A stretch of 64,000 nucleotides of DNA from Planctomycetota bacterium (GCA_024653775.1 JANLHZ010000293.1:400-64399), one strand, 5' to 3'; positions 1 through 63,943 are shown, counted from the first letter of the stretch. The notes: a model not told the origin generated them from the letters alone. Numbers and translations are program-made.

Positions 1-948
1 CCCGCTGGAATAGACGACAAAGGGTCAGTTCCGATTTCTGCAATTCCTGAATTTAATGCCATTGAACGTACTAAAGAAATTGACCACGGCCAAGAGATGA
101 TGCCGATCATAAAGATTGACCAAGAAAATTTGATACATGAAAAACTTGACCGGATTCCTTCCAGCGTGAGAGACGGAATTTCATTTATGGAAAAGAATGA
201 AAGTCAGGTTAATTCACGACCGGTAAGTAGAAATGTGCTGGGTCTAAAGACTCGTGTCTCTACTTGTACATTTGAAGTTCTTGTCGGTGCTTACATTCCA
301 GAGAAGTATATCGATGACCCATCTGATATTGGCCTGATTTCGTGGTACGAATTCGAGGGTGACGACCGAGGACCGGCAAGTAGCTCGGCAGAAACACAAA
401 CAAAAAGCCGAGTGTGGATGAAGTATAAAATTGATTTTTGCAATCAGCAGCAGTTGTTTTCATATGGCATTGGGACAACTCGTCGAGTTAAGTTGGAATA
501 TGCCAGATCATCGTATTACGGCATTCCGATCGTTAGGCCGTCTATAGTGAAAAGAGAAGAAGCAAGGGCCTCCGGCGCACATACGACTGGTAACGCGGTA
601 TTTCCAAATAATTGCAAGGTAGAAATCCACATGGAATCTGCCGAAAGCAATCCATTTATTTCTTTAGCCCCAGCTATCGACATTGTTTTTGATATGAATG
701 CGTGGCTTTCTGACGGGACGATTTACTGGAATTTTACAATGAAACATGATGGATTTCCAAATTATGAAGTTTGGATTTCTGGCGGCGATGACTGGGTGCA
801 GCAAGCGCCTCAGGCTGTATACTCGTTTGATCATGTGGCACACGGACAAGTGCCACTGTCATTACTTCCAGATGCTGAATGGACTAAAGAGATGTCAGGA
901 ACAATTTCAAATTTAGTCTGCAATTGCTGCCCAACAAAGAATGAATAA
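1..948 (+). CDS. Hypothetical protein, 5'-truncated by the window edge (complete 336-aa copy on the right arm). Cys-rich C-terminus CNCCPTKNE. Low-GC island.
   Basis: Long ORF. The mirror copy 62933..63943 is complete. No recognisable family motif. Confidence 0.5.
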   Translation, partial: PAGIDDKGSVPISAIPEFNAIERTKEIDHGQEMMPIIKIDQENLIHEKLDRIPSSVRDGISFMEKNESQVNSRPVSRNVLGLKTRVSTCTFEVLVGAYIPEKYIDDPSDIGLISWYEFEGDDRGPASSSAETQTKSRVWMKYKIDFCNQQQLFSYGIGTTRRVKLEYARSSYYGIPIVRPSIVKREEARASGAHTTGNAVFPNNCKVEIHMESAESNPFISLAPAIDIVFDMNAWLSDGTIYWNFTMKHDGFPNYEVWISGGDDWVQQAPQAVYSFDHVAHGQVPLSLLPDAEWTKEMSGTISNLVCNCCPTKNE

Positions 949-971
949 CAGATAAAGGATCAAGTTGATAA

Positions 972-1391
972 ATGGTCGATACTACGATTGAAAACAGTTT
1001 CTTGAAAAAGTTATTATTTGGCGCATTGGTAATTGTTACGGCCGTTACAAATATGTTAGAGTCATACGCAGCAGGTCCAGTTAGTCCTGGTGCTCTTTGG
1101 AATATTGCTATGTTGTTTTCTCGGTTTGGGTTCCTTGCGATGGTAACGTCCGGGATATTGATGCTTTTTATCAGGTATCAGTTGGCGATGGAAATATGTC
1201 TTATTGCAACTTTGATGATGTGGTCTACACAGTGGTGGTTTTTAATGGGATTTATCAAAGGCATAATAGGTGGATCATTGTCTTCTATTCTCTTTGTCAT
1301 CCCCCAGGTGCTTTTGTTGGTTGTTTTATTTGTTTCAATAAAAGGTTTTGCCACAACTGATGATGCAAGCAATAGCAATAGTTTTCGGTAG
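972..1391 (+). CDS. Small integral membrane protein (about 4 predicted TM helices), function unknown.
   Basis: 139-aa ORF dominated by hydrophobic segments, 23 nt after the upstream gene. Low GC. Confidence 0.5.
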   Translation: MVDTTIENSFLKKLLFGALVIVTAVTNMLESYAAGPVSPGALWNIAMLFSRFGFLAMVTSGILMLFIRYQLAMEICLIATLMMWSTQWWFLMGFIKGIIGGSLSSILFVIPQVLLLVVLFVSIKGFATTDDASNSNSFR

Positions 1392-1478
1392 ATGCTTTAT
1401 AGCTATTGAGCGTGCATGGAATTCGTTTTTCCATAACTACCATTATACCAATGACTTACAGTAAACTTAAAAACGCTT

Positions 1479-1685
1479 TTGACGGAACGGTACTTTGACC
1501 GTGGCGGCGAAGACAGATTGGAACTATATCCAAAGTACGAATTCGACTATAAAATATGCCACTCGGAGGAGTGCCCAAGCTTACCAAAGGAGGACATCAA
1601 TCCCAGTGACAACGTGGGTGCGGGTTTTGTGATTAGATCGGCTGAGATTACTGAAACCGGGAGTTTTCAGGAGTGGAATAAATGA
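1479..1685 (+). CDS. Small hypothetical protein (68 aa).
   Basis: ATGA stop/start overlap with the downstream gene suggests translational coupling. No homology recognised. Confidence 0.35.
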   Translation: MTERYFDRGGEDRLELYPKYEFDYKICHSEECPSLPKEDINPSDNVGAGFVIRSAEITETGSFQEWNK

Positions 1686-2398
1686 AAAATCGAAGGCTCA
1701 TAAAACGGATAATAATGATTTCGGTTTTCATTCTTCTAATAGCAGGCGGTGCGCGTCTTTACTGGTATCTATTCATCTACAATCCAGACTACCACCGGTA
1801 CGCTTTGATCAAGCAGACCATTGAGAATCAAAAAATTCCGGAGTCTTGGTCCGGTAATTTTAGAGTCGAATCTAAACTAAACGCAGACAGTATTGAAATA
1901 TTTATCCGGTCAGTCAATGAGGCCGTGTTCAATATCCGATACGATGAATGCGAAATTCGCGATCATTTTGGGCGACCTGTTTCAACCTATGTAACTCATT
2001 ATAGGTTACAGCTTAGTGAAACTCAATTGGGTTGGTTTAAATGGGTTCCTAACTGGCAACGTCTCGATCAACCAGATACAAATAATAACAAGTACTATTT
2101 TGAATTGGTTCGACGTATAGGCTTGAAACGAGCTTCATTTTGCCGTCCGGATACTAATCATGGAATGTGGGAATACAATATCTTTCCATTGCGTGATGGA
2201 TTCGGGCCGGATTCGAAGACAGAAGATTTCTTTGGCGAACGGTTCGTTGCGCACATTGTTATCGAAATGAACGATGAAGTTGGTTCGTTCGATTTTGTGA
2301 ATATGATGTACGCGTTTTCCAACGTTGTAAGCAAGACTAGTGTTGTTGACGGTCATAATGTACACGCTCAGTTAACATTGTATAGTGGCAAAGTGTAG
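1682..2398 (+). CDS. Hypothetical protein with an N-terminal TM anchor (238 aa).
   Basis: N-terminus MKNRRLIKRIIMISVFILLIAGG is hydrophobic. 4-nt overlap with the upstream ORF. Low-GC island. Confidence 0.5.
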   Translation: MKNRRLIKRIIMISVFILLIAGGARLYWYLFIYNPDYHRYALIKQTIENQKIPESWSGNFRVESKLNADSIEIFIRSVNEAVFNIRYDECEIRDHFGRPVSTYVTHYRLQLSETQLGWFKWVPNWQRLDQPDTNNNKYYFELVRRIGLKRASFCRPDTNHGMWEYNIFPLRDGFGPDSKTEDFFGERFVAHIVIEMNDEVGSFDFVNMMYAFSNVVSKTSVVDGHNVHAQLTLYSGKV

Positions 2399-2431
2399 GT
2401 TGAAAAATAGCAACATTTTAAGGGTTGTTTA

Positions 2432-2728
2432 ATGCCTTCAAACCTTAGGTTTTTCCGTTTCGACTTGAGCCAGAATCCGGTGGATTCGTTGATTTACGTC
2501 AAGGCGAATACGCTGCAGATCGAGCTTGAAGCTCCGGGTCCGCTCACGAGGCTGGGATTCATTCAGGTGGATAACAATCCGCCGATTCCGGTTTTCGACG
2601 CAACCGACCTCAATCTTGGATTCGTGCAGGACATCGAGCGCGTTCATCTGCGCTTTTATCAGGAAGCCGCGCCGGGGTATTCGCTGGTACTCACCGCAAG
2701 CACCGCCGCGAAGCTCGTCGTCGGGTAG
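2432..2728 (+). CDS. Hypothetical protein (98 aa).
   Basis: GC-rich ORF with typical codon bias, just after the low-GC island. No family recognised. Confidence 0.4.
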   Translation: MPSNLRFFRFDLSQNPVDSLIYVKANTLQIELEAPGPLTRLGFIQVDNNPPIPVFDATDLNLGFVQDIERVHLRFYQEAAPGYSLVLTASTAAKLVVG

Positions 2729-2828
2729 TTTTCTATTCCCCACGATTAAAGTTTGAACCTTTCTTCGTCGAAAGATGACCTGAGCTTCGTTCTCTCATCC
2801 CGGGAGGACCGATATTCATCCGCCTACG

Positions 2829-3581
2829 ATGATCCGCGAATATTTTAATCAGTCGAAAAACCTCGCCGTGAGCTATCTGTACGTGATGCCCGTACTCGTG
2901 CTCTACACCGCGGGTCTTAGCCTCGCGAGCGAATCGCAGGCGTCGCGGACGAATTCCATCGCCGACCTTTTTCTATGGATCGCGGACCAGTTCGGCCATC
3001 AGAACATTTTCAACGCGCTGATTTTCGCGGGAATTTTCGTCAGCCTCGTCTACCTCAAAAAGACCGAAACCGGAGTGTCGCTCAAATGGTTTCCGCTTGT
3101 CCTCGTCGAAAGCGTCGGCTATTCGTTTCTGTTCCTCGCGTTCGCGACGTTCTATTCCGCGAACCTTCTTTCGCTCGGGCAGGGCGAAGGCGAAATGACG
3201 CTCTATTTCGACGTCGTTCTTAGTTTCGGCGCGGGCATTTACGAGGAACTCTTTTTCAGGCTGATCCTTCTCACGGGACTTGTAAACTTTTTCAGATTCG
3301 TGATGCGCCGCGACACTCATCACGAGTCGGCGGACGAGCCTAGCGTCTACATTCTCGCGATCGCGACGCAGGCGATCCTGTTTTCGCTCGCGCATCATTT
3401 CGTGCGCACATCGAGCGGAGGGCTCGACCTCGTTATCGACAACACTCCGCTGTTCGTCTTCCGCGCGGTCTGCGGCGTTCTGTTCGCGTCGCTTTTCCTC
3501 GCGCGAGGCTTCGCGGTCGCGGTTTACACCCACGTGTTCTACGACGTCATCGTGACTCTGATTAACCGAGGAATCATGTAG
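2829..3581 (+). CDS. CPBP-family intramembrane metalloprotease (CAAX protease / Abi-like).
   Basis: Multi-TM protein with YEELFFR (EExxxR), FSLAHH (FxxxH) and HVFYD (HxxxD) motifs in the canonical order. Confidence 0.65.
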   Translation: MIREYFNQSKNLAVSYLYVMPVLVLYTAGLSLASESQASRTNSIADLFLWIADQFGHQNIFNALIFAGIFVSLVYLKKTETGVSLKWFPLVLVESVGYSFLFLAFATFYSANLLSLGQGEGEMTLYFDVVLSFGAGIYEELFFRLILLTGLVNFFRFVMRRDTHHESADEPSVYILAIATQAILFSLAHHFVRTSSGGLDLVIDNTPLFVFRAVCGVLFASLFLARGFAVAVYTHVFYDVIVTLINRGIM

Positions 3582-3611
3582 AAATGGCGCTGATTCTTTA
3601 CTTTTGATTCC

Positions 3612-4268
3612 TTGGACCGAAAAATAAATCTGCGTCATTCGCGAAATCCGCAGATGTTTCCAATGAAAATCAAAAATCAAAAATCAAAAATCAGAATTCG
3701 ATTTCGTGGTATTGCCGCGCTCTCGATCTGCGTGGGAATTGCGGTCTACTTGTTTTACGACGACATTTTCGTCTCGAATTTCGCGACGCCGCTGATTCCG
3801 GAAGTCGCTGCCCAGTACGGCATCGATCCGTGTCTGCTTGCAGCGGTGATCGAGGTGGAATCCGCCGGGCAGCCAGACGTGGTCTCGCGGTCCGGAGCGG
3901 TCGGACTGATGCAGATCATGCCGGACACCGCGAAATGGCTCGCGCAGACCCGGGGCTGGAATCACGACGAATCCAGACTCTCCGACCCTGGCTACAACCT
4001 GCATCTCGGTTCGTACTATCTGGCAATGCTGCTCGAACGACACTGCGGGGACGTCGCGCTCGCTCTCGCGGCGTACAACGCTGGCCCGGGGAACGTCGAT
4101 AAGTGGATGAACGCCCACCCCGGCACGAACTCTCTGGAACTGATCAATACGTACGCATTCACCGAGACGCGCGAATACGTTGGCAAAGTTCTTCGTATCC
4201 GTGATTATTTTCGAGCGCGGCAGAGCGATGTCGGCTGGTCGCTACCTCTGATTCGACGTCTGACATAG
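3612..4268 (+). CDS. Lytic transglycosylase (SLT domain, family 1) with an N-terminal membrane anchor.
   Basis: IEVESAGQP (catalytic Glu), GLMQIMP and AAYNAGPGNV motifs. The start may be 3612 or the internal ATG at 3663. Confidence 0.8.
   Translation: MDRKINLRHSRNPQMFPMKIKNQKSKIRIRFRGIAALSICVGIAVYLFYDDIFVSNFATPLIPEVAAQYGIDPCLLAAVIEVESAGQPDVVSRSGAVGLMQIMPDTAKWLAQTRGWNHDESRLSDPGYNLHLGSYYLAMLLERHCGDVALALAAYNAGPGNVDKWMNAHPGTNSLELINTYAFTETREYVGKVLRIRDYFRARQSDVGWSLPLIRRLT
3666..3693 (+). repeat. (AAAATCA)x4 perfect heptanucleotide tandem repeat inside the 5' end of the lytic transglycosylase CDS.
   Basis: Read directly: atgAAAATCAAAAATCAAAAATCAAAAATCAgaattcg, encoding KIKNQKSKI. The unit length is not a multiple of 3. 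Confidence 0.95.
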
Positions 4269-4281
4269 GCAGGCTCCGTCA

Positions 4282-4345
4282 TGCGTATGCGCGCGCAATA
4301 TATTGTGCACACCGTAAGGCGCAAGGTGCAAAATATAAAGCATAC
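4282..4345 (+). terminator. Long imperfect hairpin (gcgtatgc...gcatacgc, with inner arms tatattgtgcac / gtgcaaaatata) followed by a T-rich tract. Candidate terminator of the transglycosylase gene.
   Basis: Inverted repeats read directly, followed by ttaatttttttcaactttc. 14 nt downstream of the stop at 4268. Confidence 0.4.
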
Positions 4346-4409
4346 GCTTTAATTTTTTTCAACTTTCACTTTCATTTCCAAATAATTCTCAAGAACCTCT
4401 CTCGGGGGT

Positions 4410-4417
4410 GCCGATAA
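4410..4417 (+). promoter_or_regulatory. Sigma-28 (FliA)-type -10 element GCCGATAA upstream of flgM.
   Basis: Exact 8/8 match to the sigma-28 -10 consensus, 58 nt upstream of the flgM ATG. The -35 (TAAA) match is weak. Confidence 0.35.
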
Positions 4418-4475
4418 ATGAAATAGAAGTTGCGAGTCCTAATCAGACTCGTGACCTCGAGTCGATTCCATTTTT

Positions 4476-4826
4476 ATGGAGAGGAGTAAAATGACACTCG
4501 GGGAAATCAACAGCCCTCGTGCAAACGACGTTTCACGTCCGCGCGAGGCATCTGGTAAATCCAGAACGCCTGAGAAGTCGGAAGATGTCAAATCGTCTGG
4601 TTCCGGAAGTCACGATGACGTTCAGATTTCCGTTGCCGGCCGCCTTGCCGAAGAGGTGAACGCGGTCGCACGTGAAGTTAGAGCGTCGTTTAACGAAGTC
4701 CGGTATGATCGGATAGAAGACGTCAGACGTAAACTACAGGCTGGAACTTACGAAGATCCGGTTTATCTTGAAGCCGCTGTCGGCAAGCTTATCGACAACG
4801 AAATTCAGGATCTGATGCTCTCGTAA
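4476..4826 (+). CDS. flgM: Anti-sigma-28 factor FlgM.
   Basis: C-terminal RYDRIEDVRRKLQAGTYEDPVYLEAAVGKLIDNE matches the FlgM family signature. Strong RBS ggagaggag. Size 116 aa. Confidence 0.6.
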   Translation: MERSKMTLGEINSPRANDVSRPREASGKSRTPEKSEDVKSSGSGSHDDVQISVAGRLAEEVNAVAREVRASFNEVRYDRIEDVRRKLQAGTYEDPVYLEAAVGKLIDNEIQDLMLS

Positions 4827-4854
4827 GCGATCTTTAAAGTTTAGATTCGAAAAA

Positions 4855-4882
4855 AGCGTCCTCAAAAGGGACGCTTTTTTTG
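4855..4882 (+). terminator. Rho-independent, bidirectional-looking terminator (agcgtcc-tcaaaag-ggacgct + T7, with an A-tract upstream).
   Basis: 7-bp GC-rich stem, 7-nt loop and a ttttttt tail, 29 nt after the flgM stop. Confidence 0.75.
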
Positions 4883-4936
4883 TATAACCACAGGTTGATA
4901 GAATCATTGTCCGAGGCTAATATTCGAGGTCTTTCC

Positions 4937-5010
4937 GGGCCCTTAGCTCAGTTGGTTAGAGCAGTGGACTCATAATCCATTGGTCGCTGGTTCAAGTCCA
5001 GCAGGGCCTA
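4937..5010 (+). tRNA. tRNA with CAT anticodon, most like tRNA-Ile2 (lysidine-modified CAU) rather than elongator Met.
   Basis: Cloverleaf GGGCCCT/TAGCTCAGTTGGTTAGAGC/anticodon loop CTCATAA/TGGTCGCTGGTTCAAGTCCAGCAGGGCCT. The anticodon stem-loop and T-arm are near-identical to E. coli ileX. No encoded CCA. Confidence 0.85.
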
Positions 5011-5062
5011 CTTTCACTTTTTGTCGATCCAGAAGACCTCGAAAGGACGCCGCGGGTGCAGG

Positions 5063-6031
5063 ATGAATGCCGCCATAACCTTCAGTCGGGTAACGAAGGT
5101 CTTCCAGCATAGACAGGTTGCGCTCGCGGACGTCAGCTTCGAGGTCCCGAAGGGAGTAACCGTCGGACTGCTCGGCGCGAACGGCGCGGGGAAATCCACC
5201 GCGATCAGAATCGCGCTCGGACTCATAACCGCAAGCGCAGGCGACGTCCAGGTCTTTGGCGAAGCGATGCACCCGGGCGCGAAGTCTCTCCGCCAGAGAA
5301 TGGGTTTTCTGTCCGACGATCCGGCGTATCCGCGTGATCTCACCGCGATCAGCTACCTCGCGTTCGTCGGCAAGTGCTTCGGTATGCCACGCAAGGAACG
5401 CCTCGGAAGGATGGGGACGCTGCTTCGCGCGGTCGGGCTTACCGACGACGCCGGGCGGAAGATCGGAACCTTTTCGACGGGCATGAAGACCCGCCTCGGC
5501 ATTGCCGCGTCGCTTATGAACGATCCGGAGATTCTGATCTGGGACGAACCGACGTCGGGACTCGATCCGATAAGTCGCCGGCAAACGCTCGATCTTCTCG
5601 ACGAATATCACGGAAAGAAAACGATCGTCCTGAGTTCGCACATTCTTGGCGACGTGGACCGCGTTTGCGACAGACTTCTCGTCCTGAATCAGGGTCAGGT
5701 ACTCTTCGACGGGCATCGCGGGGAGTTGGAGAATCAGACTCGCGAATTCATCCTCGAGCTTCGACTCGAAGGCGCGGTGGGGGACTTCCGCGCGGCCATG
5801 CGATCTAGGCTCGGCCGCGAAGACCTCTGTCAGGACGGCGGGACGGTGCGGATCGAACTTTCAGGCGCGGGCGAACTGCATCTGACGGTCGAGTCGCTGC
5901 TTGCGCTCGCAAAGGAAACCGGCGTCACAATCGCAGGGATCAACTCAACCTCCCGGCGGCTGGAAGACGCGTATCTGAAACTGATCTCGGAAGACGAGTA
6001 TCGCGGACTGCTTCGCGTTGCGGAAAGTTGA
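5063..6031 (+). CDS. ABC transporter ATP-binding protein (ABC-2/export type).
   Basis: Walker A GANGAGKST, signature-like FSTGMKTRLG, Walker B ILIWDEPTSGLD and H-loop SSHIL. The start was moved from 5021 to the ATG at 5063 because the ORF track start lies 11 nt after the tRNA. Confidence 0.85.
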   Translation: MNAAITFSRVTKVFQHRQVALADVSFEVPKGVTVGLLGANGAGKSTAIRIALGLITASAGDVQVFGEAMHPGAKSLRQRMGFLSDDPAYPRDLTAISYLAFVGKCFGMPRKERLGRMGTLLRAVGLTDDAGRKIGTFSTGMKTRLGIAASLMNDPEILIWDEPTSGLDPISRRQTLDLLDEYHGKKTIVLSSHILGDVDRVCDRLLVLNQGQVLFDGHRGELENQTREFILELRLEGAVGDFRAAMRSRLGREDLCQDGGTVRIELSGAGELHLTVESLLALAKETGVTIAGINSTSRRLEDAYLKLISEDEYRGLLRVAES

Positions 6032-6037
6032 ACATAA

Positions 6038-6122
6038 AATTCGTACCGTCTACGAATTTTATGTATGATTAAAAATGCTGATTAAAATAATACGAATAAT
6101 TCGTAGACGGCACGAATAAAAT
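6038..6122. repeat. Inverted pair of a ~24-nt element (AATTCGTAGACGG[C/T]ACGAAT) flanking a 36-bp AT-rich spacer between the ABC ATPase and permease genes.
   Basis: 6038..6060 aattcgtaccgtctacgaatttt is the reverse complement of 6098..6120 with one mismatch. Each copy is itself a 6-bp-stem hairpin. Confidence 0.6.
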
Positions 6123-6128
6123 GTTCAG

Positions 6129-7832
6129 ATGGCGATGTTGCAAAAAATTATCGGGCTTCGAGGATCGATCTCCTTCAGAGCGCTGCGGACGATAGCTGCG
6201 GCGGATTTGAGATCGATCGTGAGGTCTAAGCTGTGCTGGGGATTTTTCATCGTCAGTGCGCTGCTCACCACGCTTACTCTGAAGGGAATGCAGACGGGTG
6301 AGGAGCCAGCGATCAGGATGCTCGAGGCGGTCTACGGTACGTACATCATTATCTGGATGCACGCGGTGATTTTTATCGCCGGGTCGGCTCTGATGCGAGA
6401 GTCTGACTGCCTGATGGAAGGAATCCTCAGCCGCGGGATTACGCGAGGCGAATATATCGCGGGGAAGCTGGTCGCGAGGTCGATTGCGATTCTTTTCGTT
6501 GTCGGCGGTGTGCTTCTTCCCGCTGGATTCTGGGCAATCCGTCAGGACGCGCTCACCCGCACCGACACGGGTTTCGTCGCTTCGAACGAGTGGAACACCA
6601 AGGTCGAAGCTCACGATCCGCAGCAGCTCTATTCAGGCGCGGAAGGAAACATCATCGAGATGAAGGTGAAAAACGGAGATCAGGTCGACGCGGGTCAGGT
6701 GCTCATTCTGCTCGACGATCGAAGGCTGTTCGACGATCTCGAGTGGAAGCGCAGGGATCAGGAGAACGCGCGGCAGGAGGTCGAGAACGCGGAGCGGAGG
6801 GTCGAGGACGCGGAGCGTGCGGTCGTAGCCGCGGAGGAGACGCTCACCCAGTCGAGGCGCGAGTTCGAGGCGGCTCGTGCGAACACCGTCGGCGTCAGCG
6901 AAAACGATCGCGCGAAACTCGAGGACGCGGTCAACGGCCGGGAACGGGACCTGGAAACCGCGCGAAACCGCGTTCCTCTCGAGACGGCGTCGGTCGATCG
7001 CGCCCAGCGCGCGCATGACGTCGCGAGCGATCAGGTGCGGCAGGCCCGCGAGCGTCTGACCCACGCGGTGGTCGTGAGTCCGATCTCAGGCCACCTGATC
7101 GAGACGAAGGTCCAGAGCGGGCAGTGGGTTGCGCAGGGGACGCATCTGCTTACGGTCGCGCCGCTGTCGGAGTTCGAACTGCACGTGCCGGTGTACGATT
7201 TCGAGGACTTCCAGAGGCTGAAGGAAGGACTCACGGCGTACGTCACGGTCGAGGACACGGAATTCATCGGGAAGGTCGAACGCGTCGGCGCGACGACGGA
7301 ACCGGACAAATGGCAGCGTCCCACGAATTTCGCGGTGGTACGTTTCAGCTCGAACGGCGCGCGCGGTCTGCTCGGACTCGGCGCGGAAGTCAAAATCGCG
7401 CTGCCTCCGCCCGAAGAGGACCGCACGATGGCGGACGAGATTTTCGACACGCTTACAGGTAGAGGCAAGGACGATCTGGACACGCGCACCGCGTCCGTGA
7501 CGTATTTCTGGATGCTCGTCGGGTTTGCGAAGGTCATAGGCTGCGCGATGCTGCTCGTCACGCTTTCGCTCTTCGCGACGGCGCTGTTTCGTAGCGCGCT
7601 GTTCTCGATTCTGGGCGTCGTCGGACTCTGGCACGTTTCGAATCTGCTTTTCGATTTCGCCGGGCTTCCGGAGCTTTCGTACATCGAGATCATGGGCACG
7701 ATGGACAAGGTGCTCGCGGGCGCGTCCGGCGCGGGCGACGAAATCGCAGCGCTATGCTGGCTCTACGGAATTTCCGCGGTCCTTGGCGTGCTGACGGTCT
7801 ATGTCTTCACAAAGCGAGATCCGGTGAAGTGA
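6129..7832 (+). CDS. Membrane protein: ABC-2-type permease-like TM domain fused to a HlyD-family (biotin-lipoyl hairpin + coiled coil) periplasmic adaptor domain, with a C-terminal TM segment.
   Basis: N-terminal and C-terminal TM helices. EGNIIEMKVKNGDQVDAGQVLILLDD and VVSPISGHLIETKVQSGQWVAQGTHLLTV lipoyl-like half-sites flank a long Glu/Arg-rich coiled coil. Immediately downstream of the ABC ATPase. Confidence 0.55.
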   Translation: MAMLQKIIGLRGSISFRALRTIAAADLRSIVRSKLCWGFFIVSALLTTLTLKGMQTGEEPAIRMLEAVYGTYIIIWMHAVIFIAGSALMRESDCLMEGILSRGITRGEYIAGKLVARSIAILFVVGGVLLPAGFWAIRQDALTRTDTGFVASNEWNTKVEAHDPQQLYSGAEGNIIEMKVKNGDQVDAGQVLILLDDRRLFDDLEWKRRDQENARQEVENAERRVEDAERAVVAAEETLTQSRREFEAARANTVGVSENDRAKLEDAVNGRERDLETARNRVPLETASVDRAQRAHDVASDQVRQARERLTHAVVVSPISGHLIETKVQSGQWVAQGTHLLTVAPLSEFELHVPVYDFEDFQRLKEGLTAYVTVEDTEFIGKVERVGATTEPDKWQRPTNFAVVRFSSNGARGLLGLGAEVKIALPPPEEDRTMADEIFDTLTGRGKDDLDTRTASVTYFWMLVGFAKVIGCAMLLVTLSLFATALFRSALFSILGVVGLWHVSNLLFDFAGLPELSYIEIMGTMDKVLAGASGAGDEIAALCWLYGISAVLGVLTVYVFTKRDPVK

Positions 7833-7927
7833 GTACGCTTTCGTAGTGGCTTGTAAGGCGATTCTTTAATCCGCTCGCTACGATCTGGAAAATATGCTCT
7901 CACGAGCACACTACGAACGGATTTCCC

Positions 7928-55953: not shown

Positions 55954-56048
55954 GGGAAATCCGTTCGTAGTGTGCTCGTGAGAGCATATTTTCCAGATCG
56001 TAGCGAGCGGATTAAAGAATCGCCTTACAAGCCACTACGAAAGCGTAC

Positions 56049-57752
56049 TCACTTCACCGGATCTCGCTTTGTGAAGACATAGACCGTCAGCACGCCAAGG
56101 ACCGCGGAAATTCCGTAGAGCCAGCATAGCGCTGCGATTTCGTCGCCCGCGCCGGACGCGCCCGCGAGCACCTTGTCCATCGTGCCCATGATCTCGATGT
56201 ACGAAAGCTCCGGAAGCCCGGCGAAATCGAAAAGCAGATTCGAAACGTGCCAGAGTCCGACGACGCCCAGAATCGAGAACAGCGCGCTACGAAACAGCGC
56301 CGTCGCGAAGAGCGAAAGCGTGACGAGCAGCATCGCGCAGCCTATGACCTTCGCAAACCCGACGAGCATCCAGAAATACGTCACGGACGCGGTGCGCGTG
56401 TCCAGATCGTCCTTGCCTCTACCTGTAAGCGTGTCGAAAATCTCGTCCGCCATCGTGCGGTCCTCTTCGGGCGGAGGCAGCGCGATTTTGACTTCCGCGC
56501 CGAGTCCGAGCAGACCGCGCGCGCCGTTCGAGCTGAAACGTACCACCGCGAAATTCGTGGGACGCTGCCATTTGTCCGGTTCCGTCGTCGCGCCGACGCG
56601 TTCGACCTTCCCGATGAATTCCGTGTCCTCGACCGTGACGTACGCCGTGAGTCCTTCCTTCAGCCTCTGGAAGTCCTCGAAATCGTACACCGGCACGTGC
56701 AGTTCGAACTCCGACAGCGGCGCGACCGTAAGCAGATGCGTCCCCTGCGCAACCCACTGCCCGCTCTGGACCTTCGTCTCGATCAGGTGGCCTGAGATCG
56801 GACTCACGACCACCGCGTGGGTCAGACGCTCGCGGGCCTGCCGCACCTGATCGCTCGCGACGTCATGCGCGCGCTGGGCGCGATCGACCGACGCCGTCTC
56901 GAGAGGAACGCGGTTTCGCGCGGTTTCCAGGTCCCGTTCCCGGCCGTTGACCGCGTCCTCGAGTTTCGCGCGATCGTTTTCGCTGACGCCGACGGTGTTC
57001 GCACGAGCCGCCTCGAACTCGCGCCTCGACTGGGTGAGCGTCTCCTCCGCGGCTACGACCGCACGCTCCGCGTCCTCGACCCTCCGCTCCGCGTTCTCGA
57101 CCTCCTGCCGCGCGTTCTCCTGATCCCTGCGCTTCCACTCGAGATCGTCGAACAGCCTTCGATCGTCGAGCAGAATGAGCACCTGACCCGCGTCGACCTG
57201 ATCTCCGTTTTTCACCTTCATCTCGATGATGTTTCCTTCCGCGCCTGAATAGAGCTGCTGCGGATCGTGAGCTTCGACCTTGGTGTTCCACTCGTTCGAA
57301 GCGACGAAACCCGTGTCGGTGCGGGTGAGCGCGTCCTGACGGATTGCCCAGAATCCAGCGGGAAGAAGCACACCGCCGACAACGAAAAGAATCGCAATCG
57401 ACCTCGCGACCAGCTTCCCCGCGATATATTCGCCTCGCGTAATCCCGCGGCTGAGGATTCCTTCCATCAGGCAGTCAGACTCTCGCATCAGAGCCGACCC
57501 GGCGATAAAAATCACCGCGTGCATCCAGATAATGATGTACGTACCGTAGACCGCCTCGAGCATCCTGATCGCTGGCTCCTCACCCGTCTGCATTCCCTTC
57601 AGAGTAAGCGTGGTGAGCAGCGCACTGACGATGAAAAATCCCCAGCACAGCTTAGACCTCACGATCGATCTCAAATCCGCCGCAGCTATCGTCCGCAGCG
57701 CTCTGAAGGAGATCGATCCTCGAAGCCCGATAATTTTTTGCAACATCGCCAT
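56049..57752 (-). CDS. ABC-2 permease / HlyD-like adaptor fusion, mirror copy.
   Basis: Identical to 6129..7832. Confidence 0.55.
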   Translation of the reverse strand: MAMLQKIIGLRGSISFRALRTIAAADLRSIVRSKLCWGFFIVSALLTTLTLKGMQTGEEPAIRMLEAVYGTYIIIWMHAVIFIAGSALMRESDCLMEGILSRGITRGEYIAGKLVARSIAILFVVGGVLLPAGFWAIRQDALTRTDTGFVASNEWNTKVEAHDPQQLYSGAEGNIIEMKVKNGDQVDAGQVLILLDDRRLFDDLEWKRRDQENARQEVENAERRVEDAERAVVAAEETLTQSRREFEAARANTVGVSENDRAKLEDAVNGRERDLETARNRVPLETASVDRAQRAHDVASDQVRQARERLTHAVVVSPISGHLIETKVQSGQWVAQGTHLLTVAPLSEFELHVPVYDFEDFQRLKEGLTAYVTVEDTEFIGKVERVGATTEPDKWQRPTNFAVVRFSSNGARGLLGLGAEVKIALPPPEEDRTMADEIFDTLTGRGKDDLDTRTASVTYFWMLVGFAKVIGCAMLLVTLSLFATALFRSALFSILGVVGLWHVSNLLFDFAGLPELSYIEIMGTMDKVLAGASGAGDEIAALCWLYGISAVLGVLTVYVFTKRDPVK

Positions 57753-57849
57753 CTGAACATTTTATTCGTGCCGTCTACGAATTATTCGTATTATTTTAAT
57801 CAGCATTTTTAATCATACATAAAATTCGTAGACGGTACGAATTTTATGT

Positions 57850-58818
57850 TCAACTTTCCGCAACGCGAAGCAGTCCGCGATACTCGTCTTCCGAGATCAG
57901 TTTCAGATACGCGTCTTCCAGCCGCCGGGAGGTTGAGTTGATCCCTGCGATTGTGACGCCGGTTTCCTTTGCGAGCGCAAGCAGCGACTCGACCGTCAGA
58001 TGCAGTTCGCCCGCGCCTGAAAGTTCGATCCGCACCGTCCCGCCGTCCTGACAGAGGTCTTCGCGGCCGAGCCTAGATCGCATGGCCGCGCGGAAGTCCC
58101 CCACCGCGCCTTCGAGTCGAAGCTCGAGGATGAATTCGCGAGTCTGATTCTCCAACTCCCCGCGATGCCCGTCGAAGAGTACCTGACCCTGATTCAGGAC
58201 GAGAAGTCTGTCGCAAACGCGGTCCACGTCGCCAAGAATGTGCGAACTCAGGACGATCGTTTTCTTTCCGTGATATTCGTCGAGAAGATCGAGCGTTTGC
58301 CGGCGACTTATCGGATCGAGTCCCGACGTCGGTTCGTCCCAGATCAGAATCTCCGGATCGTTCATAAGCGACGCGGCAATGCCGAGGCGGGTCTTCATGC
58401 CCGTCGAAAAGGTTCCGATCTTCCGCCCGGCGTCGTCGGTAAGCCCGACCGCGCGAAGCAGCGTCCCCATCCTTCCGAGGCGTTCCTTGCGTGGCATACC
58501 GAAGCACTTGCCGACGAACGCGAGGTAGCTGATCGCGGTGAGATCACGCGGATACGCCGGATCGTCGGACAGAAAACCCATTCTCTGGCGGAGAGACTTC
58601 GCGCCCGGGTGCATCGCTTCGCCAAAGACCTGGACGTCGCCTGCGCTTGCGGTTATGAGTCCGAGCGCGATTCTGATCGCGGTGGATTTCCCCGCGCCGT
58701 TCGCGCCGAGCAGTCCGACGGTTACTCCCTTCGGGACCTCGAAGCTGACGTCCGCGAGCGCAACCTGTCTATGCTGGAAGACCTTCGTTACCCGACTGAA
58801 GGTTATGGCGGCATTCAT
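57850..58818 (-). CDS. ABC transporter ATP-binding protein, mirror copy.
   Basis: Mirror of 5063..6031. Confidence 0.85.
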   Translation of the reverse strand: MNAAITFSRVTKVFQHRQVALADVSFEVPKGVTVGLLGANGAGKSTAIRIALGLITASAGDVQVFGEAMHPGAKSLRQRMGFLSDDPAYPRDLTAISYLAFVGKCFGMPRKERLGRMGTLLRAVGLTDDAGRKIGTFSTGMKTRLGIAASLMNDPEILIWDEPTSGLDPISRRQTLDLLDEYHGKKTIVLSSHILGDVDRVCDRLLVLNQGQVLFDGHRGELENQTREFILELRLEGAVGDFRAAMRSRLGREDLCQDGGTVRIELSGAGELHLTVESLLALAKETGVTIAGINSTSRRLEDAYLKLISEDEYRGLLRVAES

Positions 58819-58870
58819 CCTGCACCCGCGGCGTCCTTTCGAGGTCTTCTGGATCGACAAAAAGTGAAAG

Positions 58871-58944
58871 TAGGCCCTGCTGGACTTGAACCAGCGACCA
58901 ATGGATTATGAGTCCACTGCTCTAACCAACTGAGCTAAGGGCCC
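58871..58944 (-). tRNA. tRNA (CAT anticodon, Ile2-like), mirror copy.
   Basis: Reverse complement of 4937..5010. Confidence 0.85.
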
Positions 58945-59054
58945 GGAAAGACCTCGAATATTAGCCTCGGACAATGATTCTATCAACCTGTGGTTATACA
59001 AAAAAAGCGTCCCTTTTGAGGACGCTTTTTTCGAATCTAAACTTTAAAGATCGC

Positions 59055-59405
59055 TTACGAGAGCATCAGATCCTGAATTTCGTTGTCGATAAGCTTGCCG
59101 ACAGCGGCTTCAAGATAAACCGGATCTTCGTAAGTTCCAGCCTGTAGTTTACGTCTGACGTCTTCTATCCGATCATACCGGACTTCGTTAAACGACGCTC
59201 TAACTTCACGTGCGACCGCGTTCACCTCTTCGGCAAGGCGGCCGGCAACGGAAATCTGAACGTCATCGTGACTTCCGGAACCAGACGATTTGACATCTTC
59301 CGACTTCTCAGGCGTTCTGGATTTACCAGATGCCTCGCGCGGACGTGAAACGTCGTTTGCACGAGGGCTGTTGATTTCCCCGAGTGTCATTTTACTCCTC
59401 TCCAT
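59055..59405 (-). CDS. flgM: FlgM anti-sigma-28 factor, mirror copy (terminator 58999..59026, sigma-28 -10 box 59464..59471).
   Basis: Identical to 4476..4826. Confidence 0.6.
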   Translation of the reverse strand: MERSKMTLGEINSPRANDVSRPREASGKSRTPEKSEDVKSSGSGSHDDVQISVAGRLAEEVNAVAREVRASFNEVRYDRIEDVRRKLQAGTYEDPVYLEAAVGKLIDNEIQDLMLS

Positions 59406-59612
59406 AAAAATGGAATCGACTCGAGGTCACGAGTCTGATTAGGACTCGCAACTTCTATTTCATTTATCGGCACCCCCGAGAGAGGTTCTTGAGAATTATT
59501 TGGAAATGAAAGTGAAAGTTGAAAAAAATTAAAGCGTATGCTTTATATTTTGCACCTTGCGCCTTACGGTGTGCACAATATATTGCGCGCGCATACGCAT
59601 GACGGAGCCTGC

Positions 59613-60269
59613 CTATGTCAGACGTCGAATCAGAGGTAGCGACCAGCCGACATCGCTCTGCCGCGCTCGAAAATAATCACGGATACGAAGAACTTTGCCA
59701 ACGTATTCGCGCGTCTCGGTGAATGCGTACGTATTGATCAGTTCCAGAGAGTTCGTGCCGGGGTGGGCGTTCATCCACTTATCGACGTTCCCCGGGCCAG
59801 CGTTGTACGCCGCGAGAGCGAGCGCGACGTCCCCGCAGTGTCGTTCGAGCAGCATTGCCAGATAGTACGAACCGAGATGCAGGTTGTAGCCAGGGTCGGA
59901 GAGTCTGGATTCGTCGTGATTCCAGCCCCGGGTCTGCGCGAGCCATTTCGCGGTGTCCGGCATGATCTGCATCAGTCCGACCGCTCCGGACCGCGAGACC
60001 ACGTCTGGCTGCCCGGCGGATTCCACCTCGATCACCGCTGCAAGCAGACACGGATCGATGCCGTACTGGGCAGCGACTTCCGGAATCAGCGGCGTCGCGA
60101 AATTCGAGACGAAAATGTCGTCGTAAAACAAGTAGACCGCAATTCCCACGCAGATCGAGAGCGCGGCAATACCACGAAATCGAATTCTGATTTTTGATTT
60201 TTGATTTTTGATTTTCATTGGAAACATCTGCGGATTTCGCGAATGACGCAGATTTATTTTTCGGTCCAA
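59613..60269 (-). CDS. SLT lytic transglycosylase, mirror copy (heptamer repeat at 60188..60215).
   Basis: Identical to 3612..4268. Confidence 0.8.
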   Translation of the reverse strand: MDRKINLRHSRNPQMFPMKIKNQKSKIRIRFRGIAALSICVGIAVYLFYDDIFVSNFATPLIPEVAAQYGIDPCLLAAVIEVESAGQPDVVSRSGAVGLMQIMPDTAKWLAQTRGWNHDESRLSDPGYNLHLGSYYLAMLLERHCGDVALALAAYNAGPGNVDKWMNAHPGTNSLELINTYAFTETREYVGKVLRIRDYFRARQSDVGWSLPLIRRLT

Positions 60270-60299
60270 GGAATCAAAAGTAAAGAATCAGCGCCATTT

Positions 60300-61052
60300 C
60301 TACATGATTCCTCGGTTAATCAGAGTCACGATGACGTCGTAGAACACGTGGGTGTAAACCGCGACCGCGAAGCCTCGCGCGAGGAAAAGCGACGCGAACA
60401 GAACGCCGCAGACCGCGCGGAAGACGAACAGCGGAGTGTTGTCGATAACGAGGTCGAGCCCTCCGCTCGATGTGCGCACGAAATGATGCGCGAGCGAAAA
60501 CAGGATCGCCTGCGTCGCGATCGCGAGAATGTAGACGCTAGGCTCGTCCGCCGACTCGTGATGAGTGTCGCGGCGCATCACGAATCTGAAAAAGTTTACA
60601 AGTCCCGTGAGAAGGATCAGCCTGAAAAAGAGTTCCTCGTAAATGCCCGCGCCGAAACTAAGAACGACGTCGAAATAGAGCGTCATTTCGCCTTCGCCCT
60701 GCCCGAGCGAAAGAAGGTTCGCGGAATAGAACGTCGCGAACGCGAGGAACAGAAACGAATAGCCGACGCTTTCGACGAGGACAAGCGGAAACCATTTGAG
60801 CGACACTCCGGTTTCGGTCTTTTTGAGGTAGACGAGGCTGACGAAAATTCCCGCGAAAATCAGCGCGTTGAAAATGTTCTGATGGCCGAACTGGTCCGCG
60901 ATCCATAGAAAAAGGTCGGCGATGGAATTCGTCCGCGACGCCTGCGATTCGCTCGCGAGGCTAAGACCCGCGGTGTAGAGCACGAGTACGGGCATCACGT
61001 ACAGATAGCTCACGGCGAGGTTTTTCGACTGATTAAAATATTCGCGGATCAT
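60300..61052 (-). CDS. CPBP intramembrane protease, mirror copy.
   Basis: Identical to 2829..3581. Confidence 0.65.
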   Translation of the reverse strand: MIREYFNQSKNLAVSYLYVMPVLVLYTAGLSLASESQASRTNSIADLFLWIADQFGHQNIFNALIFAGIFVSLVYLKKTETGVSLKWFPLVLVESVGYSFLFLAFATFYSANLLSLGQGEGEMTLYFDVVLSFGAGIYEELFFRLILLTGLVNFFRFVMRRDTHHESADEPSVYILAIATQAILFSLAHHFVRTSSGGLDLVIDNTPLFVFRAVCGVLFASLFLARGFAVAVYTHVFYDVIVTLINRGIM

Positions 61053-61152
61053 CGTAGGCGGATGAATATCGGTCCTCCCGGGATGAGAGAACGAAGCTCA
61101 GGTCATCTTTCGACGAAGAAAGGTTCAAACTTTAATCGTGGGGAATAGAAAA

Positions 61153-61449
61153 CTACCCGACGACGAGCTTCGCGGCGGTGCTTGCGGTGAGTACCAGCGA
61201 ATACCCCGGCGCGGCTTCCTGATAAAAGCGCAGATGAACGCGCTCGATGTCCTGCACGAATCCAAGATTGAGGTCGGTTGCGTCGAAAACCGGAATCGGC
61301 GGATTGTTATCCACCTGAATGAATCCCAGCCTCGTGAGCGGACCCGGAGCTTCAAGCTCGATCTGCAGCGTATTCGCCTTGACGTAAATCAACGAATCCA
61401 CCGGATTCTGGCTCAAGTCGAAACGGAAAAACCTAAGGTTTGAAGGCAT
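61153..61449 (-). CDS. Hypothetical 98-aa protein, mirror copy.
   Basis: Identical to 2432..2728. Confidence 0.4.
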   Translation of the reverse strand: MPSNLRFFRFDLSQNPVDSLIYVKANTLQIELEAPGPLTRLGFIQVDNNPPIPVFDATDLNLGFVQDIERVHLRFYQEAAPGYSLVLTASTAAKLVVG

Positions 61450-61482
61450 TAAACAACCCTTAAAATGTTGCTATTTTTCAAC

Positions 61483-62199
61483 CTACACTTTGCCACTATA
61501 CAATGTTAACTGAGCGTGTACATTATGACCGTCAACAACACTAGTCTTGCTTACAACGTTGGAAAACGCGTACATCATATTCACAAAATCGAACGAACCA
61601 ACTTCATCGTTCATTTCGATAACAATGTGCGCAACGAACCGTTCGCCAAAGAAATCTTCTGTCTTCGAATCCGGCCCGAATCCATCACGCAATGGAAAGA
61701 TATTGTATTCCCACATTCCATGATTAGTATCCGGACGGCAAAATGAAGCTCGTTTCAAGCCTATACGTCGAACCAATTCAAAATAGTACTTGTTATTATT
61801 TGTATCTGGTTGATCGAGACGTTGCCAGTTAGGAACCCATTTAAACCAACCCAATTGAGTTTCACTAAGCTGTAACCTATAATGAGTTACATAGGTTGAA
61901 ACAGGTCGCCCAAAATGATCGCGAATTTCGCATTCATCGTATCGGATATTGAACACGGCCTCATTGACTGACCGGATAAATATTTCAATACTGTCTGCGT
62001 TTAGTTTAGATTCGACTCTAAAATTACCGGACCAAGACTCCGGAATTTTTTGATTCTCAATGGTCTGCTTGATCAAAGCGTACCGGTGGTAGTCTGGATT
62101 GTAGATGAATAGATACCAGTAAAGACGCGCACCGCCTGCTATTAGAAGAATGAAAACCGAAATCATTATTATCCGTTTTATGAGCCTTCGATTTTTCAT
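61483..62199 (-). CDS. Hypothetical TM-anchored protein, mirror copy (low-GC island).
   Basis: Identical to 1682..2398. Confidence 0.5.
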   Translation of the reverse strand: MKNRRLIKRIIMISVFILLIAGGARLYWYLFIYNPDYHRYALIKQTIENQKIPESWSGNFRVESKLNADSIEIFIRSVNEAVFNIRYDECEIRDHFGRPVSTYVTHYRLQLSETQLGWFKWVPNWQRLDQPDTNNNKYYFELVRRIGLKRASFCRPDTNHGMWEYNIFPLRDGFGPDSKTEDFFGERFVAHIVIEMNDEVGSFDFVNMMYAFSNVVSKTSVVDGHNVHAQLTLYSGKV

Positions 62200-62402
62200 T
62201 TATTCCACTCCTGAAAACTCCCGGTTTCAGTAATCTCAGCCGATCTAATCACAAAACCCGCACCCACGTTGTCACTGGGATTGATGTCCTCCTTTGGTAA
62301 GCTTGGGCACTCCTCCGAGTGGCATATTTTATAGTCGAATTCGTACTTTGGATATAGTTCCAATCTGTCTTCGCCGCCACGGTCAAAGTACCGTTCCGTC
62401 AA
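62196..62402 (-). CDS. Small hypothetical protein, mirror copy.
   Basis: Identical to 1479..1685. Confidence 0.35.
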   Translation of the reverse strand: MTERYFDRGGEDRLELYPKYEFDYKICHSEECPSLPKEDINPSDNVGAGFVIRSAEITETGSFQEWNK

Positions 62403-62489
62403 AAGCGTTTTTAAGTTTACTGTAAGTCATTGGTATAATGGTAGTTATGGAAAAACGAATTCCATGCACGCTCAATAGCTATAAAGCAT

Positions 62490-62909
62490 CTACCGAAAAC
62501 TATTGCTATTGCTTGCATCATCAGTTGTGGCAAAACCTTTTATTGAAACAAATAAAACAACCAACAAAAGCACCTGGGGGATGACAAAGAGAATAGAAGA
62601 CAATGATCCACCTATTATGCCTTTGATAAATCCCATTAAAAACCACCACTGTGTAGACCACATCATCAAAGTTGCAATAAGACATATTTCCATCGCCAAC
62701 TGATACCTGATAAAAAGCATCAATATCCCGGACGTTACCATCGCAAGGAACCCAAACCGAGAAAACAACATAGCAATATTCCAAAGAGCACCAGGACTAA
62801 CTGGACCTGCTGCGTATGACTCTAACATATTTGTAACGGCCGTAACAATTACCAATGCGCCAAATAATAACTTTTTCAAGAAACTGTTTTCAATCGTAGT
62901 ATCGACCAT
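62490..62909 (-). CDS. Small 4-TM membrane protein, mirror copy.
   Basis: Identical to 972..1391. Confidence 0.5.
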   Translation of the reverse strand: MVDTTIENSFLKKLLFGALVIVTAVTNMLESYAAGPVSPGALWNIAMLFSRFGFLAMVTSGILMLFIRYQLAMEICLIATLMMWSTQWWFLMGFIKGIIGGSLSSILFVIPQVLLLVVLFVSIKGFATTDDASNSNSFR

Positions 62910-62932
62910 TTATCAACTTGATCCTTTATCTG

Positions 62933-63943
62933 TTATTCATTCTTTGTTGGGCAGCAATTGCAGACTAAATTTGAAATTGTTCCTGACATCTCTTTAGTCC
63001 ATTCAGCATCTGGAAGTAATGACAGTGGCACTTGTCCGTGTGCCACATGATCAAACGAGTATACAGCCTGAGGCGCTTGCTGCACCCAGTCATCGCCGCC
63101 AGAAATCCAAACTTCATAATTTGGAAATCCATCATGTTTCATTGTAAAATTCCAGTAAATCGTCCCGTCAGAAAGCCACGCATTCATATCAAAAACAATG
63201 TCGATAGCTGGGGCTAAAGAAATAAATGGATTGCTTTCGGCAGATTCCATGTGGATTTCTACCTTGCAATTATTTGGAAATACCGCGTTACCAGTCGTAT
63301 GTGCGCCGGAGGCCCTTGCTTCTTCTCTTTTCACTATAGACGGCCTAACGATCGGAATGCCGTAATACGATGATCTGGCATATTCCAACTTAACTCGACG
63401 AGTTGTCCCAATGCCATATGAAAACAACTGCTGCTGATTGCAAAAATCAATTTTATACTTCATCCACACTCGGCTTTTTGTTTGTGTTTCTGCCGAGCTA
63501 CTTGCCGGTCCTCGGTCGTCACCCTCGAATTCGTACCACGAAATCAGGCCAATATCAGATGGGTCATCGATATACTTCTCTGGAATGTAAGCACCGACAA
63601 GAACTTCAAATGTACAAGTAGAGACACGAGTCTTTAGACCCAGCACATTTCTACTTACCGGTCGTGAATTAACCTGACTTTCATTCTTTTCCATAAATGA
63701 AATTCCGTCTCTCACGCTGGAAGGAATCCGGTCAAGTTTTTCATGTATCAAATTTTCTTGGTCAATCTTTATGATCGGCATCATCTCTTGGCCGTGGTCA
63801 ATTTCTTTAGTACGTTCAATGGCATTAAATTCAGGAATTGCAGAAATCGGAACTGACCCTTTGTCGTCTATTCCAGCGGGATCAAGGCGTTCACTATCGC
63901 TTTCATTGCTTTGCAGGAATTGGCGAGCTTCTTTGCGTATCAA
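62933..63943 (-). CDS. Hypothetical protein, complete 336-aa copy (the left-arm copy is truncated by the window start).
   Basis: Start MIRKEARQFLQ... The C-terminal 283 aa are identical to 97..948. Confidence 0.5.
   Translation of the reverse strand: MIRKEARQFLQSNESDSERLDPAGIDDKGSVPISAIPEFNAIERTKEIDHGQEMMPIIKIDQENLIHEKLDRIPSSVRDGISFMEKNESQVNSRPVSRNVLGLKTRVSTCTFEVLVGAYIPEKYIDDPSDIGLISWYEFEGDDRGPASSSAETQTKSRVWMKYKIDFCNQQQLFSYGIGTTRRVKLEYARSSYYGIPIVRPSIVKREEARASGAHTTGNAVFPNNCKVEIHMESAESNPFISLAPAIDIVFDMNAWLSDGTIYWNFTMKHDGFPNYEVWISGGDDWVQQAPQAVYSFDHVAHGQVPLSLLPDAEWTKEMSGTISNLVCNCCPTKNE

Follow-up and report, generated by a model that had tools for sequence, protein, structure and literature searches.

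The 64,000-nt window analysed here, that is the whole stretch of planctomycete DNA that opens above, is almost entirely one perfect reverse-complement palindrome, and this symmetry most probably reflects a technical fold-back, at a short dyad in the native sequence, rather than a structure of the genome. In a base-by-base comparison of window positions 1..63880, all 31,940 pairs were complementary (0 mismatches) with no spacer, around an axis at 31940/31941 that reads ...GAAATAGTCA/TGACTATTTC... (the slash marks the axis). The coordinates of paired positions sum to 63881. So many complementary pairs in a row cannot be a product of chance. The earlier note on this DNA had described 1-63880 as a single spacer-less perfect palindrome, which the comparison bears out, and the two mirrored ORF pairs that it quoted (402 and 1268 aa) lie where it placed them (Table 1). 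The segment that follows position 63880 has no partner for the sole reason that the window starts at 1.

Table 1. Features of the palindrome, its axis and its arms, in window coordinates.
Feature	Position	Strand	Description
Left arm	1..31940	.	exact reverse complement of 31941..63880, 0 mismatches in 31,940 pairs
Right arm	31941..63880	.	ordinary planctomycete chromosomal segment, ~90% coding
Right-arm continuation	63881..64000	.	mirror partner would precede window position 1
Axis hexamer TCA/TGA	31938..31943	.	GTC (end of mirrored unit A) + linker AT + GAC (start of unit A)
Unit A, 30-nt dyad GACTATTTCGAA-gtatga-TTCGAAATGGTC	31942..31971	+	mirror 31910..31939; operator-like element ahead of the ATPase gene
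Linker + unit B, sigma-70-like promoter	31972..32004	+	mirror 31877..31909
Predicted -35 TGGACT	31972-31977	+	in the linker/unit B stretch
Predicted -10 TATATT/TATTAT	ends 31999/32001	+	ATPase ATG then at 32010
AAA_14/DUF4143 ATPase, 402 aa	32010..33218	+	mirror 30663..31871(-); GenBank MCR4318216.1/MCR4318217.1
VWA protein, 1268 aa	48741..52547	+	mirror 11334..15140(-)
tRNA-Met	4937..5011 and 58870..58944	+ and -	mirror copies
Right-arm genes			DUF4143 ATPase, prfB, pgi, HerA-like ATPase, 1268-aa VWA protein, folE, mdh, ABC/HlyD pair, tRNA-Met

The source of the window is a contig of 64,678 nt in an NCBI MAG entitled "Planctomycetes bacterium" (locus tags NUW37_). This length is an even number, as a full palindrome requires, and the encoded proteins carry mirrored accession pairs (216/217, 215/218, 213/220, 210/223 and 194/239). 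Neither the locus tag nor the accessions had a hit in a paper search. In fact, the palindrome takes up no less than 98.8% of the contig (63,880 nt or more out of 64,678), so that at most 798 nt lie outside the palindrome as seen in the window, the final 678 nt of the contig being beyond the sequence compared. Thus, the contig has no room for unique flanks, and the unique sequence on either side of the arms that the earlier note had raised was not found in its 64.7 kb.

Each arm is ordinary chromosome, with prfB, pgi, folE, mdh and tRNA-Met among its ~24 genes. The prfB frameshift site (CTTTGAC) is intact and so are the long ORFs. Single-copy genes are indeed duplicated head-to-head, as had been remarked for prfB, pgi, folE and a tRNA, each of which we find in both arms. 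The tRNA was the sole match of the arm in an Rfam search, and a megablast of the 8 kb adjoining the axis returned no match in a plasmid collection; therefore the segment is not a known plasmid. The ATPase encoded next to the axis matches the PADLOC candidate defence family PDC-S01.

What sets the axis apart is its position. It is intergenic. The ATPase gene has a conserved twin-dyad promoter/operator module in front of it, and the axis falls 1 nt beyond the 5' edge of this module (arm-tip sequence at the axis: GACTATTTCGAAGTATGATTCGAAATGGTC). Conservation across homologues starts at the GAC of unit A, a dyad predicted to form a DNA hairpin (centroid -8.6 kcal/mol, z -3.4), and the predicted module wholly explains the first 64 nt of each arm. 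The same module is present upstream of at least 19 ATPase homologues from several phyla, where its units usually adjoin as ...GGTC-NN-GAC..., and the mirroring restores this natural 2-nt spacing: MAFFT placed rc(A)-AT-A of the contig on A-TT-B of the homologues. Related modules hold perfect palindromes of 14 and 30 bp; one locus (L005) carries additional units and three others (L009, L018 and L024) an additional GTC just upstream. Two further ideas about the axis were discarded. A 12-nt motif, GACYAWTTCGAA, is not a dispersed repeat, all 6 exact copies lying at most 45 nt from the axis. Had snap-back occurred at the hairpin of unit A, the axis would be at 31956/31957 and the asymmetric 6-nt loop GTATGA would remain between the arms as a spacer, and no such spacer is present.

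Because the axis adjoins a conserved dyad module, we favour a palindrome-driven fold-back over a random fragment-end chimera. In the latter, the local sequence would be irrelevant: a missed SMRTbell adapter, or nanopore read-through from template to complement, at an arbitrary shear point would have given a chimeric read that then seeded the assembly. Such reads are spacer-less palindromes, palindromic long reads are documented after amplification, and a 32-kb arm fits the long-read range. Moreover, Logan, ENA and JGI hold no fragments of the organism, as would be expected if its reads were non-Illumina or unreleased. However, a random end would hit coding sequence ~90% of the time, and the probability that it comes no more than 1 nt from the edge of the dyad module is ~1e-4, yet this is where the axis is. 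Indel errors are not evident either, given the intact long ORFs and prfB frameshift site, and we regard a chimera at an arbitrary point as highly improbable.

To explain the palindrome, we propose that the genome holds one copy of a ~32-kb chromosomal segment, which for the assembler would stop at the upstream edge of the DUF4143 ATPase promoter/operator. There, the assembly path would have turned onto its own reverse complement and run back, leaving arm + rc(arm) as one contig. The native DNA would carry a short palindrome at the axis, probably completed by another operator half-site that lies 2 nt ahead of unit A. By one route, a de Bruijn-graph inverted loop would arise at a k-mer with a self-reverse-complementary (k-1)-suffix, and the path would then end where coverage locally fails or at a breakpoint that varies between strains. 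This extra assumption (coverage gap or strain-variable boundary) is needed to account for the absent branch, because a good assembler prefers a covered native continuation or stops. By the alternative route, a few snap-back chimeric molecules or reads in the library may have supplied the k-mers that cross the axis. What counts against a purely in-silico graph loop is that the native DNA would have to be perfectly palindromic over at least ~20 bp at the axis; only 1 of 26 homologous upstream regions contains a perfect palindrome of that length.

Contigs of this kind have been described before. SPAdes assemblies of Mycobacterium bovis contained 81 whole-contig perfect palindromes, documented as artefacts (PMC9455707), and whole-contig palindromes also occur in cyanobacterial SAG assemblies (bioRxiv 10.1101/2023.06.06.543983). 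Those contigs likewise consist of a sequence and its exact reverse complement, with the gene set annotated twice in mirror image, but they could be checked against reference genomes, whereas the present organism has neither a reference nor a close relative. Inverted loops in de Bruijn graphs give rise to palindromic unitigs, which SPAdes and MEGAHIT output whole, and unitigs become unsafe at low coverage (Rahman & Medvedev 2022, PMC9528984). Such loops are predicted at any k-mer with a self-reverse-complementary (k-1)-suffix, and their unitigs are of even length and spacer-less, as is the present palindrome. They require, however, that the native sequence be perfectly palindromic over k-1 or more at the axis, which here is made plausible by the module architecture. 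Whole-genome amplification is another source of palindromic chimeras (Pacasus, PMC6218980). Like the contig as we read it, chimeras from amplification or long-read libraries are inverted duplications made in vitro. MDA chimeras reportedly tend to have offset junctions and thus an asymmetric centre, whereas the symmetry is exact here and the record is labelled MAG, not SAG.

The fold-back is not a property of the ATPase gene, since none of 80 homologous ATPase loci was folded back, and we rejected the idea of a trait of this locus family on that count. The native continuation past the axis was not found in genome contigs, metagenome contigs or a gene-position index, three collections that do not include the source organism. 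Exact-protein look-ups with the ATPase and mdh had no match in the gene-position index. In the genome contigs, the best ATPase match was 65% identical, and a 24-mer beside the axis had 0 matches in the metagenome contigs. The ATPase gene is spread over so many phyla that its neighbours are uninformative for synteny. The closest homologues of the neighbouring 568-aa gene are only 26-32% identical, and no relative is close enough to reveal the native continuation.

Could the palindrome be a faithful image of a telomere? The contig would then be a read-through at the end of a linear planctomycete chromosome, either of its covalently closed hairpin telomere or of the head-to-head dimer junction left by replication, and a TelA/ResT-type resolvase encoded elsewhere would cut 6 bp apart around the axis. 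Replicated telomeres of the Agrobacterium TelA, Borrelia ResT and phage N15 TelN systems have perfectly palindromic junctions as well. A perfect spacer-less palindrome with nothing past the axis is what such a telomere predicts, yet it fits an artefact equally. That the axis is intergenic and that the native continuation was found in no collection also agree with a telomere. Another point against an artefact is the axis hexamer: TCATGA is the telomere core of TelA, in whose Agrobacterium target these six bases separate the scissile sites (also found in rTel oligonucleotides). However, 4 of the 6 belong to the operator half-sites of the ATPase gene, as their conserved GAC/GTC, so that the match is only a ~1 in 4 coincidence once the position of the axis is given.

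Outside this core, the flanks of the axis are unrelated to the TelA site. Past TGA, 3-5 of 23 arm positions agree with the TelA half-site, where chance alone would give 6.4, and we rejected a resemblance of the arm tip to this half-site, although resolvase targets are system-specific and the mismatch with TelA flanks is compatible with membership of the class. Since the first 64 nt of the arm are the promoter/operator module, no separate resolvase site is left. In fact, the predicted -35 box lies a mere 31 nt from the supposed telomere tip, and several homologues have their module far inside records of 3-8 Mb labelled chromosome, at distances from the ends that range from hundreds of kb to Mb. 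The module gives the arm tip a known function that is not telomeric. The tip thus differs from that of hairpin-telomere replicons in being a conserved promoter/operator, and the arm encodes no resolvase: Pfam, NCBIfam and PADLOC searches, which covered the arm, found no protelomerase or tyrosine-recombinase domain among its ~24 genes. A literature search returned no paper that describes either a protelomerase or a hairpin telomere from Planctomycetes, a taxon not known to have linear replicons; the single paper in which all three terms occurred deals with algal viruses.

The earlier note had offered the hairpin telomere as one of three options, and what stands in its favour is the TCATGA core, weakly, set against an arm with no protelomerase and flanks unlike the TelA site. 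We consider a hairpin telomere or dimer junction very unlikely, and slightly less likely still its more specific form, in which a linear chromosome of a deep-branching Planctomycetota lineage would be faithfully read through and a TelA-like resolvase would act on TCATGA.

The remaining option was a genuine symmetric inverted duplication, formed in all or part of the population by in vivo snap-back replication at the natural dyad upstream of the ATPase gene. Tandem inversion duplications of Salmonella and E. coli start in this way, by snap-back at short quasi-palindromes, and the axis does coincide with a dyad-rich site of the type that primes such synthesis. Identical arms would follow from a very recent event, but a zero-divergence head-to-head copy of 32 kb with prfB, pgi, folE and mdh would have to be of extremely recent origin. 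SbcCD cleaves hairpins, and long spacer-less palindromes are unstable in bacteria; therefore a real one of 64 kb is unlikely a priori. Perfectly symmetric spacer-less junctions of tandem inversion duplications are, as a rule, unstable and soon remodelled to asymmetric ones, so that stable examples have asymmetric junctions and unique flanks, whereas the present contig is symmetric and flankless. The at most 798 nt outside the palindrome do not provide the unique flanks that a duplication predicts on both arms, and a short-read assembler would collapse identical inverted copies instead of laying both out. Such a duplication is to our mind extremely improbable, and among the three options it is the technical artefact that we favour.

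If a telomere were nevertheless at hand, hairpin-telomere chromosomes would for the first time extend beyond Borrelia, Agrobacterium and their phages, and the PVC superphylum would have gained its first example. More generally, a real palindrome would mean either a new hairpin-telomere lineage or a bacterium that tolerates a spacer-less palindrome of 64 kb, and the evidence favours neither. As a probable fold-back, the contig matters for another reason: a public MAG record holds ~24 genes twice, including the single-copy markers prfB, pgi, folE, mdh and a tRNA. An artefact of this kind inflates genome size, estimates of duplication and contamination, and paralogue counts, and a palindromic contig could wrongly pass for evidence of a linear chromosome or a giant palindrome. 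Such records can be detected by a simple self-reverse-complement test on contigs.

Tested directly under the symmetry i + j = 63881, the whole window gives 31,940 complementary pairs with 0 mismatches, exactly the perfect palindrome that the earlier note had described, and the mirrored open reading frame pairs it quoted proved right on re-check. The axis falls at 31940|31941, with GAAATAGTCA on its left and TGACTATTTC on its right, and positions 63881-64000 are unpaired simply because the window begins at 1. In fact, the palindrome covers at least 63,880 of the 64,678 nt of the source contig. It was already in the deposited record, because every protein tested by exact look-up appears under a pair of mirrored GenBank accessions (MCR4318216/217, 215/218, 213/220, 210/223 and 194/239; locus tags NUW37_). 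The ATPase that adjoins the axis has a 100%-identical NCBI entry, "MAG: ... [Planctomycetes bacterium]", on a single contig of this same length.

Could the two arms be a genuine inverted duplication? An internal one would have unique flanks on both sides, and this contig has none, at most 798 nt lying outside the palindrome. Moreover, the arms meet in perfect symmetry with no spacer and show zero divergence over 32 kb, and bacteria are known not to maintain long palindromes stably. In combination, these properties make a duplication highly unlikely.

Rather, we consider it very probable that the palindrome is a technical fold-back, an assembly or library path that reversed onto its own reverse complement, and not a biological structure. 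SPAdes assemblies of M. bovis contained 81 whole-contig perfect palindromes, which their authors ascribed to assembly error and removed (PMC9455707), and such contigs likewise occur in single-cell assemblies (bioRxiv 10.1101/2023.06.06.543983); here, too, essentially the whole contig is a perfect palindrome. In the assembly graph, a k-mer with a self-reverse-complementary (k-1)-suffix gives rise to an inverted loop and, with it, a palindromic unitig, which SPAdes and MEGAHIT output whole, and low coverage leads to unitigs that are not in the genome (Rahman & Medvedev, PMC9528984). In our best explanation, the native DNA would have a short palindrome at a unit boundary of the module upstream of the ATPase, and the fold-back would have arisen there by one of two routes. 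In the graph, an inverted loop would combine with a gap in coverage or with a breakpoint that differs among strains. Strain-to-strain variation would be typical of a gene such as the ATPase, whose product has a match to PDC-S01, a PADLOC candidate defence family (E = 6e-49). Alternatively, in the library, a few snap-back molecules or reads would have supplied the axis-crossing k-mers, in-vitro snap-back chimeras being a known phenomenon (PMC6218980). Either route may have made the fold-back.

The arm itself, about 90% coding, is ordinary chromosome, neither plasmid nor phage, and megablast of the 8 kb beside the axis against a plasmid collection found no match. The long reading frames and the prfB site are intact, which argues for high base-level accuracy; the canonical programmed +1 frameshift site of prfB indicates that indel errors are absent.

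Features of the right arm and of the module upstream of the ATPase, in window coordinates
Feature	Position	Strand	Remarks
Two-unit module	31942..32009 (mirror 31872..31939)		
Unit A	31942-31971		30-nt dyad GACYAww...wwTGGTC; DNA hairpin z = -3.4
Linker between units A and B			2 nt
Unit B			second 30-nt dyad; -35 TTGACY (here TGGACT), -10 GATAAT (here TATATT/TATTAT)
AAA_14/DUF4143 ATPase, 402 aa	32010..33218 (mirror 30663..31871(-))	+	adjoins axis
568-aa membrane-like protein	33220..34926	-	beside ATPase
CAP-domain protein; GNAT acetyltransferase			axis side of arm
prfB	38950..40065	+	intact CTTTGAC +1 frameshift site; AGGGGG..CTTTGAC at 39027
HDOD protein; HEAT-repeat protein; pgi			farther from axis than prfB
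HerA/FtsK-like ATPase, 775 aa	46319..48646	-	
VWA-domain membrane protein, 1268 aa	48741..52547	+	
28-nt direct repeat CCTGGGACCGCGGACGTCCTCGTCCGCA	52579..52606; 54579..54606		perfect; GC-rich hairpin inside
AT-rich 34-42-nt repeat TTCGTGCCGTCTACGAA	52745..52778; 57757..57790; 57811..57852		inner dyad; intergenic
folE, mdh, HlyD/ABC pair, tRNA-Met, FlgM-like protein, SLT transglycosylase			outer end of arm
Outer 2 kb	62000..64000 (mirror 1..2000)		41% GC vs ~56% elsewhere

Several other elements of the arm deserve mention. The HerA/FtsK-like ATPase, with weak matches to HerA and mad8 defence models, forms a divergent gene pair with the VWA protein. The copies of the 28-nt repeat, exactly 2000 nt apart, follow directly on the 1268-aa gene and on mdh, and are probably a shared terminator-like element. 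The AT-rich repeat, which occurs ahead of folE and again in the gap separating the HlyD-family gene from the ABC ATPase gene, may be a shared regulator binding site. The outer 2 kb of each arm codes for a DUF3238 protein along with small membrane proteins and may represent an island where the contig ends.

The axis is intergenic, with the ATPase start codon 69 nt downstream, and the 12-nt motif GACYAWTTCGAA occurs in three exact copies per arm, all at most 45 nt from the axis and none elsewhere. We compared the upstream regions of ATPase homologues (53-65% identical) from Gammaproteobacteria, Planctomycetota, Verrucomicrobiota, Kiritimatiellia and others. In this alignment, the 69 nt before the gene form a conserved two-unit module (mean column identity 60%), collinear to an ATG that lies 3-9 nt past unit B. 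Among loci L001-L025, the same twin-dyad architecture, two 30-nt GACYAww...wwTGGTC dyads with 2 nt between them, precedes AAA_14/DUF4143 ATPase genes of several phyla. Conservation sets in precisely with the GAC of unit A (31942), and the axis is thus 1 nt outside the 5' edge of the module. Mirroring at this point yields ...GTC-AT-GAC..., which matches the natural 2-nt inter-unit spacing; given both sides of the axis, MAFFT placed rc(A)-AT-A against the homologues' A-TT-B. Further units, or one more GTC immediately before unit A, are present at some homologous loci (L005, L009, L018, L024), and the upstream regions of these homologues contain perfect palindromes 14 bp (L005) and 30 bp (L003) long. 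The axis position is far from random: about 90% of random breakpoints would fall in coding sequence, and this one sits at the module edge. Its placement suggests that a short natural dyad drove the fold-back. The hairpin of unit A itself is excluded as the site of snap-back: it would set the axis between 31956 and 31957 and leave a 6-nt asymmetric loop.

A hairpin telomere predicts the same sequence picture as a fold-back, and the axis hexamer TCATGA (31938..31943) equals the 6-nt core that separates the two scissile sites in the target of TelA, the Agrobacterium telomere resolvase. However, the operator half-sites, with their conserved GAC/GTC, already supply four of these bases, so that, given the axis position, the match needs only a T at 31941. 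Past TGA, 3-5 of 23 positions match the TelA half-site, where chance predicts 6.4: the core is the same but the flanks are unrelated. In addition, the terminal 64 nt are fully accounted for as a promoter/operator, and other genomes have this element at internal positions: several homologues sit in 3-8 Mb records labelled chromosome, with hundreds of kb to Mb between the module and the record ends. No resolvase-like protein is found among the arm's genes (Pfam, NCBIfam, PADLOC). A literature search found no report of hairpin telomeres or protelomerases in Planctomycetes. Since resolvase target sites are system-specific and the resolvase gene could lie elsewhere in the genome, we still give the telomere a slim chance.

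No other assembly revealing the true sequence past the axis was found in the gene-position index, genome contigs or metagenome contigs. Every protein cluster looked up has a single member, and the nearest database homologues of the 568-aa protein, which has no Pfam or NCBIfam match, are 26-32% identical; those that are named come from MAGs of Gemmataceae, Pirellulales and Phycisphaerae. The organism is thus known only from this MAG, which represents an isolated lineage. The ATPase has more than 6,000 relatives with E <= 1e-100, and the close ones (53-65% identical) are spread over several unrelated phyla, a distribution that fits a horizontally mobile single-gene cassette. The promoter boxes inside unit B and the short distance from there to the ATG suggest a leaderless mRNA and autoregulation. 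The ATPase gene seems to carry its control region along when it moves.
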